Source: Patescibacteria group bacterium (GTDB lineage Bacteria; Patescibacteriota; Dojkabacteria; J137). Taken from it: DNA of 64,000 bases. This document shows, piece by piece, positions 4,948-57,698 of this stretch; the first letter of the stretch is position 1, and each line of letters opens with the position of its first letter. Location of the stretch: assembly GCA_963169855.1 (NCBI GenBank), contig CAUJCN010000002.1, positions 133,508 to 197,507 on the forward strand, read 5' to 3'. A program made the position numbers and the translations under genes. The notes under the pieces are model-generated. The model did not search any database, was not told the DNA's origin, and saw nothing but the letters and a program-made list of their open reading frames with translations.

Positions 4948-5383
4948 TGGTTCTCTACCTGGCGGCAGACAGGGACAAGCTCACCACTCGAAAGAGTTTG
5001 TATTGCAAGACATGGAGAAAGAAATTAAATATAACGATAATAAATTAGTTAATAAACAAAAATGTTTTACTTCTACATTTTCAAAACAAAAAAGGATCAA
5101 TACATTCAAGGTGTAACTAAGAACATGCAGACTACAATAATCGAGTACGCACTAGCCTACAAAACAGGAATAAAACTTCTGGATGTTCAAGCTTTCAAAC
5201 GAAAGAAAGATGCAGAAAGCGTTTTGCAAGAATTTCAAACTGCACCTACAGTTGTTATCGAGAGAATCGAAACTTCCAAAAAGATTTAAGTATCAATCAC
5301 CCCTTGATCCAATCAATTGGATCACTCACCTCGAGGGGAGAAAGTTCGCCACTGGCGAGCTGGAGTGGTGATACAATTTATAA

Positions 5384-6379
5384 ATGATACTTGAATTCAC
5401 TAGCAAAGGAATCTATTGCCCTCAGGGAGATTTCTACATTGATCCAATCTCCGCAGTTGAAACCGCAGTAATTACGCATGGACACTCAGATCACGCTAGA
5501 GGTGGACATAAACGATACATTGCCACACCGGAAACCATCGCCATTATGAAATTTAGGTTAAGCAAGAAGATTAATGCTGACCCACTTGAATATAGAAAAC
5601 AAATCAACATAAAAGACGTAATAGTGTCGCTACATCCAGCAGGTCACGTTTTAGGGTCTGCTCAGGTAAGAATTGAGTACGGTGGCGAGGTAGCGGTGGT
5701 TACTGGTGACTATAAAGTTGAATACGATAACGTCTCGGAACCTTTTGAGCTTGTTAAGTGCAACACTTTCGTTACAGAATGCACTTTTGGATTACCATTA
5801 TTCAACTGGCAACCTCAGGAACAAGTATTCGACGAAATCAACGAATGGTGGAAAAAGAATTCTGAACAAGGGATAAATAGTGTTCTCAATTGCTATTCCT
5901 TAGGTAAAGCTCAAAGAATATTAAAGAATATTGATCCCTCAATTGGACCAATAGTTTGCCATGATACTATTGAGGATCATAATAAAATCCACGAGCAATT
6001 TGGGATCAAGCTACCCAAAAGAACTGACGCTTCCAACCATGATAATAAAGCCTTGATCCTAACACCAACATCATCTTCCAAAACTGAATGGTTTAAACAA
6101 TTTGGAGATCACAGACTTGGAAATGCCTCTGGCTGGATGATGTTTGATGGCTTTCACAGAGGTGTTCACAAAGGATTTGTTTTATCAGACCACTGTGATT
6201 GGAAAGCCTTAAATTGGGTCATAAAAAATACAGGTGCAGATTTAATTTATTTAATGCACGGTTATACTAAAGAATACTCCAACTATTTAAACGGACAAGG
6301 AGTTTTTACAAAGGTTGTTGAAGAATTAGGAAAGACAATTTCAGAAAACTATGCAGAATCTTCCGAATATGCTGAATAG
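5384..6379 (+). CDS. MBL-fold metallo-hydrolase resembling the ligase-associated DNA-damage-response exonuclease
   Basis: The N-terminus ILEFTSKGIYCPQGDFYIDP…AVITHGHSDHARG shows the HxHxDH MBL motif in the context typical of that exonuclease family. No ligase or Lhr helicase is adjacent. Confidence 0.5.
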   Translation: MILEFTSKGIYCPQGDFYIDPISAVETAVITHGHSDHARGGHKRYIATPETIAIMKFRLSKKINADPLEYRKQINIKDVIVSLHPAGHVLGSAQVRIEYGGEVAVVTGDYKVEYDNVSEPFELVKCNTFVTECTFGLPLFNWQPQEQVFDEINEWWKKNSEQGINSVLNCYSLGKAQRILKNIDPSIGPIVCHDTIEDHNKIHEQFGIKLPKRTDASNHDNKALILTPTSSSKTEWFKQFGDHRLGNASGWMMFDGFHRGVHKGFVLSDHCDWKALNWVIKNTGADLIYLMHGYTKEYSNYLNGQGVFTKVVEELGKTISENYAESSEYAE

Positions 6380-51852: not shown

Positions 51853-52341
51853 TTATGATTCAGGAAATTCCATAATAACTCCTGCACTTAACAATGCTTG
51901 CATGTTTGTATAGTACCTGTACAAAGGCTTATCCGCTTTCACTTTTGGATTACACCAATGAGGATCAGACTCAAACTCTGCAGGAGTTTGAATAACCAAA
52001 TCGGGTTTGTTTGCTAATTGAATTTTAAAGAAAGCCAATTGCTCGAACGACATAGGGTGTTTTTGTATAGCGAAGATTGGAGTTACCTGTTCAGGAGATA
52101 CTATTATTCCTGTTTCTTCCCATACTTCTCTTAACAAACACTCCAGTAAAGTCTCTCTTTTACCTCTTATGAATTCTCTTTTTCCACCCACCAACGAAAC
52201 AGTTTCTGCACCATTCATAGATTTTCTTCTATGAAAACAAACATCTCCATCATCCGCGACAATGATTGCTATACATCCTGTTATGCTCTCATACTCTAAA
52301 GTAAGATCTAATTTTGTAACTGGCTGATTAAACTTTTCCAT
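51853..52341 (-). CDS. NUDIX hydrolase
   Basis: The Nudix box is GGKREFIRGKRETLLECLLREVWEETGI. Confidence 0.7.
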   Translation of the reverse strand: MEKFNQPVTKLDLTLEYESITGCIAIIVADDGDVCFHRRKSMNGAETVSLVGGKREFIRGKRETLLECLLREVWEETGIIVSPEQVTPIFAIQKHPMSFEQLAFFKIQLANKPDLVIQTPAEFESDPHWCNPKVKADKPLYRYYTNMQALLSAGVIMEFPES

Positions 52342-52534
52342 CCGATGATTATACCTTGCAAGAAACTTTTCTGTATAATGATTTTATGAAGAGATTGTTT
52401 AAGTATTTGTTCCTCGCACTACTTATTTTAATAATAGGGACGTTCTTGTTATATCTTTCAAGAAATATGAAGCCTAACGAGCTACCAAAGAAGGATAATT
52501 ACGTAACTCCACGAACTTTCGAAGTTCTGTTAAG

Positions 52535-53053
52535 CTAGCTTTCAAAATAATATTCTTTGATCTTTCCATCTTCGTATAGAACAGTTCCTTGAACAATTTG
52601 ACCATAGAGAACTTTGTTCAAAAATAATTTATTATCCTCCCACATCTCATCAAAAGGAATGTCATCAAAAGCATATGGACCAACTGGTTCCATTGCATCA
52701 CTTGCAACAGGTGTACCTTCCCACTCTGTACACACAAAAATCTCCATTACAAAATCGTATTTATTATTTACGTTTAAGTATGTAATGGTTCCTGAGCTTT
52801 CGAATTTTGAAGGCTTACACACAATATTTCCATCTTTATCTGTTCCAAATTCTTCGATAAATTCTCTTACAAATGCTTCCTCGTTGGTTTCTCCTGATTC
52901 TGGTTTGCCGCCCACCCCTGCAATTAAACCAGGACCTAAATTGTTCGACACCTTAACTCTTCTTCCTAGTATCACAGAATTATCTTTAACTAAATAACCT
53001 ACTACAGTTGGAATAAAAGTCCTTTCAGTTTTTAAATACTTTTCAATGTTCAT
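52535..53053 (-). CDS. NUDIX hydrolase
   Basis: The Nudix box is GGKPESGETNEEAFVREFIEEFG. Confidence 0.7.
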   Translation of the reverse strand: MNIEKYLKTERTFIPTVVGYLVKDNSVILGRRVKVSNNLGPGLIAGVGGKPESGETNEEAFVREFIEEFGTDKDGNIVCKPSKFESSGTITYLNVNNKYDFVMEIFVCTEWEGTPVASDAMEPVGPYAFDDIPFDEMWEDNKLFLNKVLYGQIVQGTVLYEDGKIKEYYFES

Positions 53054-53366
53054 ATTCGTGTTCTATAACTAGATTCTTTATAGCAGCCTCAATTAGCTTT
53101 GCATAGTCAACTAAACTTGAGTATGTTTCATCATCGGCATCTGTAAGTGGTTTTACATTCTGAAGATCACAAAATCTATCCATCAAGCCTCCCGCTGAAT
53201 CTAACAATTGAAGCCTTACTGCCTCTCTGGGTAATCCTTCTTTCATTGAAATCTCTGCAATCTCGAGAAATTGTTTTCTTACATTTTCATCTCCGAGCAA
53301 TGCTTCGTATTGTTCGCTATTTTTAAGTTGTTCCATATAGGTTATTAATATGATTTGAGTATACAA
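53043..53366 (-). CDS. Small hypothetical helical protein upstream of the NUDIX pair
   Basis: A 107-aa ORF (possibly starting at the internal MEQLKN) that overlaps the NUDIX start. Confidence 0.3.
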   Translation of the reverse strand: MYTQIILITYMEQLKNSEQYEALLGDENVRKQFLEIAEISMKEGLPREAVRLQLLDSAGGLMDRFCDLQNVKPLTDADDETYSSLVDYAKLIEAAIKNLVIEHEYEH

Positions 53367-53385
53367 ATTTTATGCCAAAATCGTC

Positions 53386-53417
53386 TATGCACATCTTGCA
53401 CATTTTTTGCACATAGA
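53386..53417. promoter_or_regulatory. Three TGCACAT repeats in the divergent promoter region (candidate operator of the RHH protein)
   Basis: In CTATGCACATCTTGCACATTTTTTGCACATAG the repeats are spaced 10 and 11 nt apart and are flanked by CTATG/CATAG. Confidence 0.45.
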
Positions 53418-53431
53418 GTTATCATCACTTT

Positions 53432-54031
53432 ATGAAAATTTACTACACATGCTCCACTTCTGAGTTTTTGAAGTATGAGAAAAACTATAATGCAATTAGA
53501 GAATTTTTGATTAAAGAAAATCATATTCTTACAAGAGATTGGATTCCCCATACAAAAGAAATGATTGTTAACGACAAGATTGCAGTACGAGATATTAAGA
53601 AAATCTATAAGGAATGCATGCGAGCAATAAACGAAGCTGATCTAGTAATCATTGAAGACACTGTTTCTAACTTTAGTACTGGACACCAAGTTACAGTTGC
53701 TTTGCAAAGACAGAAGCCAACTTTAGTTCTTTGGGCGAAACCTAAACAGGCTCATTTTAATACATCATTTATACAAGGAGTAGAATCTGATCTTTTAGAG
53801 TTCCAAGTTTACAACGAAGAGACTTTGCCAAAAATTCTAAAGGCATTTATAAAGAAATACGAAAACGCAAAACAAAAGAATCGATTTCACTTGGTGATAA
53901 ATGATGTTGAAAGAAAGTATCTTGATTGGGCTCAGTTTAGTAAAGGAAAAAGTAGAACTAATTTAATTAGAGAATCGTTAAGAAAAACAATAGAAGGTGA
54001 CAAGGACTATTCTAAATATTTAAGTGAATAA
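53432..54031 (+). CDS. Fusion of a nucleoside 2-deoxyribosyltransferase-like (NDT/SLOG-fold) domain and a C-terminal ribbon-helix-helix DNA-binding domain
   Basis: KIYYTCSTSEF and ADLVIIEDTVSNFSTGHQVTVALQRQKPTLVLW fit the NDT pattern kiYlAgP…D.GT.fElGyA.algKPvi. The tail RFHLVINDVERKYLDWAQFSKGKSRTNLIRESL fits an RHH (CopG/Arc-like) domain. Confidence 0.5.
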   Translation: MKIYYTCSTSEFLKYEKNYNAIREFLIKENHILTRDWIPHTKEMIVNDKIAVRDIKKIYKECMRAINEADLVIIEDTVSNFSTGHQVTVALQRQKPTLVLWAKPKQAHFNTSFIQGVESDLLEFQVYNEETLPKILKAFIKKYENAKQKNRFHLVINDVERKYLDWAQFSKGKSRTNLIRESLRKTIEGDKDYSKYLSE

Positions 54032-54034
54032 AAA

Positions 54035-54059
54035 AGATCCCGCATCAAGTGCGGGATCT
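54035..54059. terminator. Stem-loop AGATCCCGC-ATCAAGT-GCGGGATCT downstream of the NDT-RHH gene
   Basis: A 9-bp perfect stem sits 4 nt after the stop codon. It has no U-tract, so it may act for the convergent helicase gene or as an RNA stability element. Confidence 0.4.
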
Positions 54060-54126
54060 GCGTTCGAACTTATCGATAAATCTTCAATGTATCGGACTTG
54101 TCCGACGAAGCTTTAGCGTAGTCGGA

Positions 54127-55746
54127 TTAACCAACAAATGTTAAAGCTTTACCTTTCTTTCCGTATCTTCCTGTTCTTCCAATTCTATGAACGTAATCTT
54201 CGTAAGATTGCGGTTCATCGTAGTTAATCACAAGAGTAATATCTGGTATGTCCAAACCTCTAGCAGCAACGTCTGTTGCAACTAAAATGTTAATCTGGTC
54301 TGTCTTAAACTTAGAAATTACTTTGTTTCTAATATACTGTGATTTATCTCCATGAATTGCATCAACTTGTAAATTTCGTGCGTACAAATTATCAGATACT
54401 CTGTCAGCTTCTCTCTTAGTCTTTGTAAAGATAAGAATCTTCTGATTAGGTTCTGATTCGATAATTTCAACAAGTTTATCAATTTTACTTCCGTCTCTTC
54501 CTACTCTTACAATATCTTGATCAACACTCTTTGTAGGAGATGTTCTAGCAAGTTCGATTGTAACTGGATTTCTCAATAATGAATGAGCAATCTTTTCTAC
54601 AGGAGTATCCATAGTTGCAGATAAGAATAATGACTGTCTTTCTGATGGAAGTTTAGCAATCAATGCTTTGATTTCATCAACAAATCCCATGTCTAACATT
54701 CTATCCACTTCGTCTAGAACAATTGTATTGAAGTTTTCAAGTTTTAACACTCTTCTATCTTCTAAATCTTTAAGTCTACCTGGTGTTCCGATAACAAATT
54801 GAGGATTTCTTCTTAATCCAGAAATCTGTCTGTAAGCACTAGCTCCTCCGATAATAGTTTCAGCTCTTAGGTTAGTTCCTTTGTTAAGAGATCTGAATTC
54901 TTCATAAATCTGAGTTGCTAATTCTCTAGTAGGAACAACAACTAATACCTGAGTATCGTTCTTAGTAATCGCTTTATTCATTAGTGGAACTAAGAATGCA
55001 GCTGTTTTACCTTGTCCAGTAGATGCTAATCCAACAACATCTTTTCCAGCAAGAATATGCTTTATAGTTTTGTCTTGAATTTCTGTTGGATGAGTGTATC
55101 CTTTTTCTTTGATGTTAGCTTTGATTGTTGAATCGATATCCATTTCCTCGAAAGATGTACTTGCTACATAACTGTTGATCTGTTCTAGAGTCTCAGCTTT
55201 TGCAATATATTTTTCGTGACCGATTTTCTTTCCTTCAAATCTACCACCCCTTGATCCTGAAGATCTTCCTCTTCCACCAGATCTGAATCCTCCAGAGCTT
55301 CTTCTACCTCCGAACGAAGATCCACCTCGAGAACTGTTTCTTCCGAAACTTCCTCCTCTATCTCCATATGATCTTAAAGAAGATTCGCTTGAGTCATTTC
55401 TGTCATAGCTATCACTTCTTTCTGATCTTTCTGAGTTTGAAGATCTATCACCATAAGATGATCGTCCTCCAAAAGATCTTCCTCCTCTAGATGAACCACC
55501 TCTTCTATTATTGAAAGGTCTTCTTTCTTGAGAGTCTCCGAATGATCTACTTTCTGAACGTTCTGGTCTTGTTGGTGTTTCTAGAAAGTCTTTTTTGTTG
55601 CTAGTCCAAGTTCTTACGTCTCTTCTTTCTGAAGAACCTTCTGATCTTGAATTAGTTGATCTACCGCCTCTTTCTCCTCTGTACCCTGAATTAGATCTGT
55701 CTCCAGATCTAGACGTGGAATACTTACGTCTGGTTTTATTGAACAT
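54127..55746 (-). CDS. DEAD-box ATP-dependent RNA helicase with a ~180-aa N-terminal Arg/Gly/Ser-rich disordered region
   Basis: The motifs found are PTEIQ, AQTGSGKT-like (ASTGQGKT), PTRELA, GTPGRL, DEVD, SAT and HRIGRTGR. The N-terminus has RGG/RSS repeats. Confidence 0.85.
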   Translation of the reverse strand: MFNKTRRKYSTSRSGDRSNSGYRGERGGRSTNSRSEGSSERRDVRTWTSNKKDFLETPTRPERSESRSFGDSQERRPFNNRRGGSSRGGRSFGGRSSYGDRSSNSERSERSDSYDRNDSSESSLRSYGDRGGSFGRNSSRGGSSFGGRRSSGGFRSGGRGRSSGSRGGRFEGKKIGHEKYIAKAETLEQINSYVASTSFEEMDIDSTIKANIKEKGYTHPTEIQDKTIKHILAGKDVVGLASTGQGKTAAFLVPLMNKAITKNDTQVLVVVPTRELATQIYEEFRSLNKGTNLRAETIIGGASAYRQISGLRRNPQFVIGTPGRLKDLEDRRVLKLENFNTIVLDEVDRMLDMGFVDEIKALIAKLPSERQSLFLSATMDTPVEKIAHSLLRNPVTIELARTSPTKSVDQDIVRVGRDGSKIDKLVEIIESEPNQKILIFTKTKREADRVSDNLYARNLQVDAIHGDKSQYIRNKVISKFKTDQINILVATDVAARGLDIPDITLVINYDEPQSYEDYVHRIGRTGRYGKKGKALTFVG

Positions 55747-56987: not shown

Positions 56988-57698
56988 TCAGCCATAAGTT
57001 TTTTTCTCCCAGAACTTCTCGTAAAGTTTCTGAATATCTCTCGATAGATCTGGAATTTTAAATTCTTCAAAATATTTCTCAATATTTTTAATATCTTGAG
57101 AAAATTTTTGATAACAGTTTGGATTTTTTGAAATATTCAGTACTTGCGGGAAATCTATTACCACAGGATGACCTTTAAACCACAAAATATTGTACTCAGA
57201 AAAATCGCCATGCACAAAGTCTTGATCTATAAACAGATTTAAGCAATCAATTATTTCCTCGAGACACTGTTGAGCTTCGGAATTACTCAATTCCACATCA
57301 GAAAGTCTTGGTGCAGGAACATCATTCTCACCTATAAATTCCATTAATAGATAGTCTTTCCCAAACAAATATACTTTTGGAATATTTGAACTTAACTGAG
57401 ATAGCATTCTCATTATTTTAAATTCTCTTTGAGTCCACTCAGCCATAAATGAGTCCTTTCCTTTATTAGTTTTGTTCTTCATTGCACGAGCCATTCTCTG
57501 ATCGCCTATTTCTCCAATACCAAGATAATCGTGTTTACTAGAATACTTTTGATTTTCTTTATAGATTTTAAGGGCGAAATTCTCTCCATCTGCCTTTATT
57601 AAATGAACAGATGCTTCTTTTCCTGATCGAATTTCCTTTACATACTCAACTTCTGAATACGTAGATAGTAATTCGTTAAAAATTATTTCAATTTGCAT
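56988..57698 (-). CDS. RIO-type atypical serine protein kinase
   Basis: SGKEASVHL…ALKIYK is the nucleotide-binding loop and Lys. VHGDFSEYNILW…VIDFPQ are the catalytic and metal-binding motifs typical of RIO1. Confidence 0.55.
   Translation of the reverse strand: MQIEIIFNELLSTYSEVEYVKEIRSGKEASVHLIKADGENFALKIYKENQKYSSKHDYLGIGEIGDQRMARAMKNKTNKGKDSFMAEWTQREFKIMRMLSQLSSNIPKVYLFGKDYLLMEFIGENDVPAPRLSDVELSNSEAQQCLEEIIDCLNLFIDQDFVHGDFSEYNILWFKGHPVVIDFPQVLNISKNPNCYQKFSQDIKNIEKYFEEFKIPDLSRDIQKLYEKFWEKKTYG

Follow-up and report, generated by a model that had tools for sequence, protein, structure and literature searches.

A DNPH1-like pseudo-enzyme domain joined to a ribbon-helix-helix domain points to a nucleotide-responsive autorepressor of nucleotide-pool sanitation in Patescibacteria

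The protein of 199 amino acids (aa) encoded at 53432..54031 on the + strand of a Dojkabacteria contig (Patescibacteriota; GenBank CAUJCN010000002.1) is probably a one-component transcription factor, namely a nucleotide-responsive autorepressor of nucleotide-pool sanitation. Coordinates refer to the window, i.e. the whole stretch of 64,000 nucleotides that was analysed (contig positions 133,508 to 197,507). The gene, here called the regulator, is supported by its open reading frame (ORF), 348 full-length homologues and an AlphaFold2 (AF2) model. It joins a DNPH1-like domain, which we read as a pseudo-enzyme, to a ribbon-helix-helix (RHH) domain. Three short direct repeats precede it, and it is divergent from an operon with a gene for an MTH1-like NUDIX hydrolase. 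An earlier sequence-only reading of this DNA had drawn attention to the protein, to a small ORF and to two NUDIX genes beside it. All of these ORFs exist as described, and the peptide motifs quoted there are present in the 199-aa translation.

A conserved TGCACAT array upstream of the regulator gene

Three direct copies of TGCACAT lie on the + strand at 53388-53394, 53397-53403 and 53408-53414 (array 53387..53414), the start-to-start distances being 9 and 11 bp. This agrees with the three repeats that had been reported between 53386 and 53417. In the window as a whole TGCACAT is no more frequent than by chance (6 copies vs. 6.15 expected). Three of the six copies are found on one strand within 27 bp, an arrangement that occurred in 0 of 5000 shuffles, and even a pair was seen in just 23 of 5000.

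For comparison across species, the 130 bp upstream of the regulator were taken from loci of ~12 kb each that had been found through the protein. The array, defined as TGCACAT-NN-TGCACAT with ≤2 mismatches, is located on the coding strand 27-47 bp before the ATG in 32 of the 34 intact genome loci of other species. The exceptions are L024, with a degenerate copy, and L023, with an inverted copy 250 bp upstream. Apart from this inverted copy, no array with ≤1 mismatch was found elsewhere in those loci, nor was there any in 13 control loci encoding NDT-Tmk fusions (see below). The flanks of the array cannot be aligned, while ATGCACAT-N-TTGCACAT is nearly invariant and followed by a weaker third repeat. 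The logo derived from 37 sequences, 4 of which had been found via the motif itself, reads TGTATATGCACAT-N-TTGCACAT-(A/T)4-nnCnCAT-N4-TAnnnT. Repeats 1 and 2 reach ~2 bits per position and repeat 3 is weaker. Conservation across species at a fixed position supports the view that the array behaves as an operator, as the sequence-only reading had suggested from the repeats.

Two promoter-like sites, both consensus matches only, are arranged around the array. The one in front of the regulator (53396..53425, + strand) has its -35 element (TTGCAC/TGCACA) within repeat 2 and TATCAT as -10 element, and the 17-bp spacer holds repeat 3. The one of the divergent operon (53358..53387, - strand) consists of TAGACG, 18 bp and TATACT, whereby the -35 element abuts and overlaps the left edge of repeat 1. 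The cross-species logo shows the regulator geometry again, with the -35-like TTGCAC of repeat 2 and TAnnnT 17 bp downstream (likewise a consensus match only); in the window TGCACA starts at 53397 and TATCAT ends at 53425 after the same 17 bp. A bound protein would thus cover the promoter.

This coincidence of repeat 2 with a -35-like hexamer, spaced 17 bp from TAnnnT as -10 element, would also be expected if the TGCACAT block were a specialised promoter, or the site of another factor, and not bound by the RHH protein at all. We hold this to be very unlikely. The block comprises three direct repeats, the first of which lies outside any standard promoter element, and its ~2 bits over 15 positions are far above the conservation of the -10. 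Moreover the array was found only before the regulator gene. In six loci (L014, L016, L018, L019, L022 and L028) the array is intact and only 27-34 bp away from the ATG, and the promoter is arranged differently. The shift of the array relative to the ATG alters the promoter geometry in these loci, indicating that the array itself is selected and not one particular promoter.

A search for the operator in the 64-kb window with ≤3 mismatches gave 2 matches including the true site, vs. 0.77 expected. A metagenome scan with ATGCACATNTTGCACAT for more regulon sites was discarded. The matches listed were mostly unrelated, with much CA/TG-rich simple repeat, and a family gene was preceded by 4 of the 122 sites among them, which is uninformative on extra targets.

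L023 has an unusual feature of its own. Between the YjjX gene and the regulator there is an 800-bp non-coding stretch (5187-6000), which holds the inverted operator copy (5744-5768) together with repeated segments such as GAGTTTGTTTTCTAGAAAA. It may have arisen by rearrangement, or represent an unannotated RNA or the remnant of a mobile element.

The divergent partner is a putative pool-sanitising enzyme

NUDIX-A (52535..53053, - strand, 172 aa) is an MTH1-like putative NUDIX hydrolase. It matches the Pfam NUDIX family with E 3e-8 and 34.1 bits (cut-off 21.1), and its box, GGKPESGETNEEAFVREFIEEFG, conforms to G-x5-E-x7-REUxEExGU. The profile of the NUDIX partners aligns with human MTH1/NUDT1 over the full length (E 6e-34) including the C-terminal MWxD(N/D)xxWxP motif, compared to 2.5e-9 for E. 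coli MutT. MTH1 and NUDIX-A are alike in this full-length profile match and in the canonical NUDIX box. They differ in some base-recognition residues, presumably Asn33 (Ala in NUDIX-A) and Asp120 (Asn in NUDIX-A) in what we take to be the MTH1 numbering.

In most loci a NUDIX-A orthologue is found immediately upstream of and divergent from the regulator, with gaps of ~76-115 bp. Given gaps of typically ~80-100 bp and an operator of ~28 bp, the promoter of the partner must abut or overlap the array. A census of the divergent partners with Pfam and NCBIfam models (n=35) returned 30 NUDIX, 3 Ham1p_like and 2 NTPase_I-T proteins; L009, where the contig ends, and L031, where a rearrangement places a NUDIX gene 0.9 kb upstream, are outside this census. 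Co-occurrence of the fusion with NUDIX genes in other genomes, on which the sequence-only reading had made its interpretation depend, is thereby established. L005, L006 and L032 have a Ham1/RdgB-type ITPase as divergent neighbour; L004, L008 and L023 have a YjjX-type inosine/xanthosine triphosphatase, which in L023 is 800 bp away. MTH1, ITPase and YjjX have unrelated folds and share the role of hydrolysing oxidised or deaminated purine nucleoside triphosphates (NTPs) before their incorporation into nucleic acids. With Ham1 or YjjX taking the place of NUDIX-A in other species, the whole looks like a system of nucleotide-pool sanitation. We regard the swapping of MTH1-like, Ham1 and YjjX proteins beside the same regulator and operator as the strongest functional clue.

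NUDIX-B (51853..52341, - strand, 162 aa, Pfam NUDIX E 4e-8) also scores above the Pfam gathering cut-off, so that the presence of two NUDIX hydrolases was correctly recognised before. NUDIX-B has a non-canonical spacing before the NUDIX box, probably a promoter-like site of its own (52377..52348) and only weak PDB matches. It was rejected as a conserved part of the system because it adjoins the regulator solely in the window and in L001. Of the regulated set that had been proposed, NUDIX-A stands as the conserved partner, and NUDIX-B and the small ORF are lineage-specific (window and L001).

The identity of the partners also bears on the earlier proposal of a nucleotide-salvage regulon or an antiphage signalling module. 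The system looks like neither: the role shared by MTH1, ITPase and YjjX is pool sanitation, and PADLOC and a viral scan were negative. That the locus is a conflict module sensing a signalling nucleotide, or that the regulator is the RHH antitoxin of a toxin-antitoxin pair, we deem extremely improbable. The regulator and the small ORF have no PADLOC match and the NUDIX genes just a weak, generic one (PDC-S07), and not a single relative of the regulator was confirmed in the 2.9 million viral contigs of IMG/VR. No effector or toxin gene accompanies the regulator, which has NUDIX, Ham1 or YjjX next to it on one side and unrelated housekeeping genes next to it on the other; the locus is flanked by SSB, SpoU and the DEAD-box helicase in conserved synteny. 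Finally, identities of 55-80% over many Patescibacteria lineages are unlike those of fast-evolving defence genes.

The N-terminal domain has a DNPH1/NDT fold with a replaced nucleophile

The AF2 model of the regulator, built on 32 homologues, reached a predicted local distance difference test (pLDDT) of 85.8 and a predicted TM-score (pTM) of 0.80. Residues 1-142 (53432..53857, + strand) form a Rossmann-like alpha/beta domain with the flavodoxin-like Rossmannoid fold of nucleoside 2-deoxyribosyltransferases (NDT), DNPH1 and MilB. The fold comparison yielded scores of 15.4 for MilB, a CMP/hydroxymethyl-CMP N-glycosidase, 14.0 for Rcl/DNPH1, 11-13 for NDTs and about 10 for TIR, receiver and LOG-like domains. 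Sequence support agrees with the fold and is weak, as the top PDB sequence matches are DNPH1/Rcl chains at E 0.03. Many of the remoter RHH-fused relatives and NDT-Tmk fusions do pass the Pfam model of the superfamily (PF05014). Of the NDT/SLOG-type fold named in the sequence-only reading, the NDT/DNPH1 part was confirmed by profile, sequence and fold comparison. SLOG/LOG domains were ruled out as the closest relatives; the nearest are the nucleoside-5'-monophosphate N-glycosidases DNPH1 and MilB.

In both HMMER and MAFFT alignments AEVTQPSLGVGYELG of Rcl pairs with IEDTVSNFSTGHQVT of the regulator. The GYELG motif of Rcl, whose Glu (E93) we take to be the catalytic nucleophile of DNPH1/Rcl, aligns with GHQVT, whereby Glu is changed to Gln86. 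The regulator consequently lacks the catalytic Glu of the PF05014 superfamily. Gln86 is invariant in the 32 of 32 aligned members of the clade of the window. In the wider family (127 representatives) this position holds Q (80), E (15), L (12), I (7) or M (3). As it is mostly not Glu, the conserved function of the family seemingly does not need the nucleophile. The surroundings are well kept in the same 127 representatives, namely E/D75, T/S77, S/N80, G84, an aromatic residue at 85, K95-P96 and a K-P-x-L strand. The most conserved stretch of the regulator, EDTVSNFSTGHQ, corresponds to the former active-site loop that binds sugar and phosphate. We read the N-terminal domain as a pseudo-enzyme sensor, i.e. 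an enzyme fold turned into a putative binding module; the replacement of the catalytic Glu by Gln favours a sensor over an enzyme.

Two alternatives attach to this domain. In the first the protein would be a bifunctional enzyme and repressor: an active N-glycosidase or hydrolase would destroy the (deoxy)nucleoside monophosphate ((d)NMP) made by the neighbouring NTP pyrophosphatase, and the RHH domain would merely autoregulate. DNPH1 destroys hydroxymethyl-dUMP (hmdUMP), and PutA, BirA and NadR are examples of autoregulating bifunctional proteins. The closest folds are indeed active NMP N-glycosidases, and 15 of the 127 representatives have Glu at the nucleophile position (e.g. P0349 with GYE). 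An invariant acidic pair (E75-D76) is located in the same loop, and an NTPase followed by an NMP glycosidase would be chemically sensible in view of DNPH1. We nevertheless consider this alternative unlikely, as the nucleophile position is Gln throughout the clade and has Gln, Leu, Ile or Met in most of the family, Cys62 stands in place of D69 of Rcl, and E-to-Q mutants of DNPH1 and NDT are reported to be inactive.

In the second alternative the regulator would work without ligand and co-regulate the gene pair at a constant set-point, with an N-terminal domain that does no more than assemble the dimer or hexamer in which RHH dimers are placed on the three repeats. The spacing of the three repeats, roughly one helical turn, would fit a trimer of dimers, the family can do without the catalytic residue, and the NDT and DNPH1 folds are obligate oligomers. 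The top-conserved EDTVSNFSTGHQ is the former active-site loop and no obvious interface, however, and the steady pairing with NUDIX, Ham1, YjjX, guanylate kinase/CYTH and Ppx-GppA genes across clades suggests a nucleotide signal. This alternative, too, appears improbable compared to a pseudo-enzyme that senses a nucleotide.

The C-terminal domain is assigned to the RHH fold

The C-terminal domain comprises residues 150-189 (53879..53998, + strand) with the strand NRFHLV and two helices; residues 191-198 add a further helix. In the AF2 model residues 151-156 are extended and residues 158-171 and 175-189 are helical; the strand is unpaired in the monomer. This strand-helix-helix topology of ~45 residues was also obtained for the isolated C-terminal domain (pLDDT 94). 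A profile built from the C-termini of 44 diverse relatives matches TTHA0139 (E 0.0036) as well as CopG-family regulators and CopG itself (E 0.017-0.15), and 14 of the 44 relatives match Pfam RHH_1 (best E 7e-5). Taken together the assignment as RHH domain is well supported. It rests on profile evidence, not on a significant structural match. The RHH domain that had been recognised in the sequence-only reading is therefore upheld by the CopG-family profile matches, the RHH_1 matches and the AF2 models.

Proposed mechanism

In the mechanism that we favour, paired C-terminal RHH domains would bind directly to the array of three direct TGCACAT heptads, which covers the -35 element and spacer of the putative regulator promoter and abuts the -35 element of the divergent one. 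The regulator would repress, rather than activate, itself and the divergent operon, consisting of the small ORF and the MTH1-like NUDIX-A. The ancestry of its N-terminal domain presumably lies with the nucleoside-5'-monophosphate N-glycosidases, e.g. DNPH1 and MilB. Without the Glu nucleophile, and with the sugar/phosphate-binding loop, this domain may bind a nucleotide without cleaving it. The most likely ligand would be a purine (deoxy)nucleoside monophosphate that is damaged or non-canonical, or a closely related compound. Its binding would shift the DNA affinity and so tune the level of the sanitising NTP pyrophosphatase. We infer that such a ligand exists and is of this kind, as well as the oligomeric state in which the protein would act.

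A narrower version assigns to the regulator the direct sensing of damaged purine nucleotides (e.g. 8-oxo-dGMP, dIMP, XMP) and the induction of pool-sanitising pyrophosphatases on demand. We put it forward tentatively and regard it as possible, if doubtful. To our knowledge, no transcription factor has been described that senses damaged purine nucleotides and switches on pool sanitation.

Several observations speak against a nucleotide-responsive autorepressor. Concerning the operator, repeat 2 doubles as a -35-like hexamer, hence part of its conservation could be due to promoter constraint. A second operator site was not found in the 64-kb window, so that the regulon may be just this locus. 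Concerning the sensor, the regulator remains below the gathering threshold of PF05014 (16.1 bits, E 0.013; cut-off 28.8). The phosphate-binding Ser of DNPH1 (S87) corresponds to Asn80 in the clade of the window and is Ser in most of the wider family. Some RHH-fused members such as P0349 (GYE) retain the Glu, hence parts of the family may be catalytic. The domain could also serve oligomerisation only. As for the DNA-binding domain, the sequence of the window regulator alone gave no match to Pfam RHH_1. Foldseek with the isolated C-terminus returned mostly RHH proteins at the top (VapB, ParD, SegB and an SSV protein; TM-score 0.5-0.66), all of them with E > 1 and none significant.

Relatives in other clades

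A paralogue (P0278; L053 5001-5600) is encoded on the same contig ~23 kb beyond the 3' end of the window. It is 35% identical to the regulator, has Gln at the catalytic position and is divergent from an operon that includes genes for guanylate kinase and for a CYTH protein. Three ATGTGTAT repeats are located upstream of P0278 and likewise upstream of its relative P0152 from another metagenome (L178). For P0285 and P0287, two members of another clade (L179 4001-5092 and L180 4001-5080), a different, non-MTH1-like NUDIX gene follows 4 bp downstream of the regulator gene. ACACA-N-TGTGT inverted repeats are found upstream in both loci, and the regulator of L179 is divergent from a Ppx-GppA phosphatase gene. 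Two further family members adjoin a methyltransferase gene or PfkB and radical-SAM genes. The presumed DNA-reading strand has RFH in the clade of the window, RFQ in the paralogue and RFN in most of the family. This hints at a co-variation of the reading residue with the repeat sequence, in a sample too small for proof.

A separate group of 13 loci (L036-L048, e.g. L036 6001-7125) from Microgenomates/Roizmanbacteria-type contigs encodes ~370-aa proteins in which an NDT/DNPH1-like domain is fused to thymidylate kinase (Tmk). The Glu is kept in six aligned examples, L046 has Gln, and the three proteins that were scanned pass PF05014. No TGCACAT operator is present at these NDT-Tmk loci. The fusion is possibly a dNMP hydrolase/kinase, and from their sequences these proteins seem to bridge the regulator family to canonical NDTs.

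Size and spread of the family

A word-indexed search with the regulator returned 348 matches, all of ~200 aa and 55-80% identical. Every cluster listed has a "-" in the precomputed Pfam column, and the names read "hypothetical protein" save for two JGI labels "antirestriction protein". An exhaustive profile search retrieved 1088 clusters (50% identity) with E ≤ 1e-3, mostly full-length, 456 of which have E ≤ 1e-10. Searching with divergent members added 1099 further proteins. Many of these are named "nucleoside 2-deoxyribosyltransferase" because only the N-terminal domain was recognised. The NDT/DNPH1-RHH fusion passes no Pfam or NCBIfam model, which bears out the earlier remark that the architecture is not a standard one, and full-text literature searching turned up no account of fusion, operator or circuit. 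The source labels are almost all Patescibacteria, among them Dojkabacteria, WWE3, Microgenomates groups, Saccharimonadales and Gracilibacteria. The few Gammaproteobacteria or Magnetospirillaceae labels are probably due to mis-binned contigs.

Further features of the locus

The small ORF is the first gene of the divergent operon and belongs to no assigned family. It comprises 97 aa from the ATG at 53336 (53043..53336, - strand) or 107 aa from a TTG at 53366. The ATG was also chosen by an independent gene call on identical contigs. With this start the divergent intergenic region measures 95 bp, and the 65 bp given in the sequence-only reading hold only for the TTG start. The ORF separates the operator from NUDIX-A, and 11 bp at its stop are shared with the start of NUDIX-A. 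The product is acidic. Scans with Pfam/NCBIfam-type models and PADLOC gave no family match, a homologue search returned just the ORF itself, and the sole homologue found is that of L001 (68% identity). It is an ORFan shared with L001 and, like NUDIX-B, stands outside the conserved system.

Housekeeping genes (SSB, SpoU methylase, DEAD-box helicase) flank the locus, in complete synteny with L001. A terminator-like, GC-rich hairpin (54035..54059) separates the regulator from the convergent DEAD-box helicase gene; the scan assigned it to the - strand, with a T-run. The helicase itself (54127-55746, - strand) carries an N-terminal extension of ~200 aa that is rich in Arg, Ser and Gly and of RGG/SR-like low complexity, which is unusual for a bacterial helicase. 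Further along, a 236-aa protein (56988-57698, - strand) has a RIO1-type kinase domain according to a precomputed Pfam match on an identical contig. RIO1-type kinases are mainly archaeal and eukaryotic. NUDIX-A and NUDIX-B are separated by 193 bp, where the opposite strand contains a 60-aa ORF (52356-52538, + strand) with a hydrophobic stretch; it is a candidate membrane peptide and may be spurious.

Significance and comparison with known systems

MutT/MTH1, RdgB/ITPase and YjjX are usually viewed as constitutive housekeeping enzymes. If the proposed mechanism is true, ultra-small, salvage-dependent bacteria would actively control nucleotide-pool sanitation, with one regulator tied to three unrelated enzyme families. 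If the ligand were moreover a damaged purine, this would amount to a dedicated "nucleotide-damage response" made from a disabled DNPH1-type enzyme, acting through a DNA site that is nearly unchanged across the sampled Patescibacteria. Most conserved proteins of Patescibacteria have no assigned function, and here a protein would be matched with a precise operator and a target gene. The analysis further defines a large unmodelled family which is now labelled "hypothetical" or mis-labelled "nucleoside 2-deoxyribosyltransferase". A single small, soluble protein and a DNA site of 28 bp would suffice to test every step of the circuit.

Among enzymes, the regulator resembles DNPH1/Rcl and MilB/BlsM most. 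It differs from them in the change of Glu to Gln86 and of D69 (Rcl) to Cys62, in the added DNA-binding domain and in missing the PF05014 cut-off.

Among RHH proteins, NikR and MetJ are ligand-controlled repressors, and the omega repressor of pSM19035 acts on arrays of 7-bp repeats. The regulator shares with them the RHH module with putative ligand control and tandem short repeats overlapping the promoter, presumably with one RHH dimer on each. In NikR and MetJ, however, the sensor is an ACT-like Ni domain or an S-adenosylmethionine pocket within the RHH fold, respectively, whereas in the regulator a C-terminal RHH domain is combined with a Rossmann-like pseudo-enzyme. The heptads of omega are contiguous, while those of the regulator are spaced at 9 and 11 bp.

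The re-use of enzymes as sensors is known from NrtR, with a Nudix-derived ADP-ribose sensor and a winged helix-turn-helix, and from PyrR/GfcR-type regulators, which derive from phosphoribosyltransferases. In these, as in our reading of the regulator, the fold of an enzyme of nucleotide metabolism, often catalytically dead, serves as effector domain in the control of nucleotide-related genes, and the regulator would add the DNPH1/NDT fold to the enzyme folds re-used as effector-binding domains of transcription factors. It differs from NrtR and PyrR/GfcR in the fold of the sensor (NDT/DNPH1), in that of the DNA-binding domain (RHH) and in the putative targets (sanitising NTP pyrophosphatases).

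NrdR is an ATP/dATP-sensing repressor composed of a zinc ribbon and an ATP-cone, which targets ribonucleotide reductase through boxes conserved across bacteria. Both systems keep a short operator over a large phylogenetic distance before genes of nucleotide metabolism. The domains of NrdR are unrelated, though, and its target is not pool sanitation. The regulator belongs to none of these systems (NikR/MetJ, omega, NrtR/PyrR, NrdR), and both its putative sensor fold and its putative target process are new among them.

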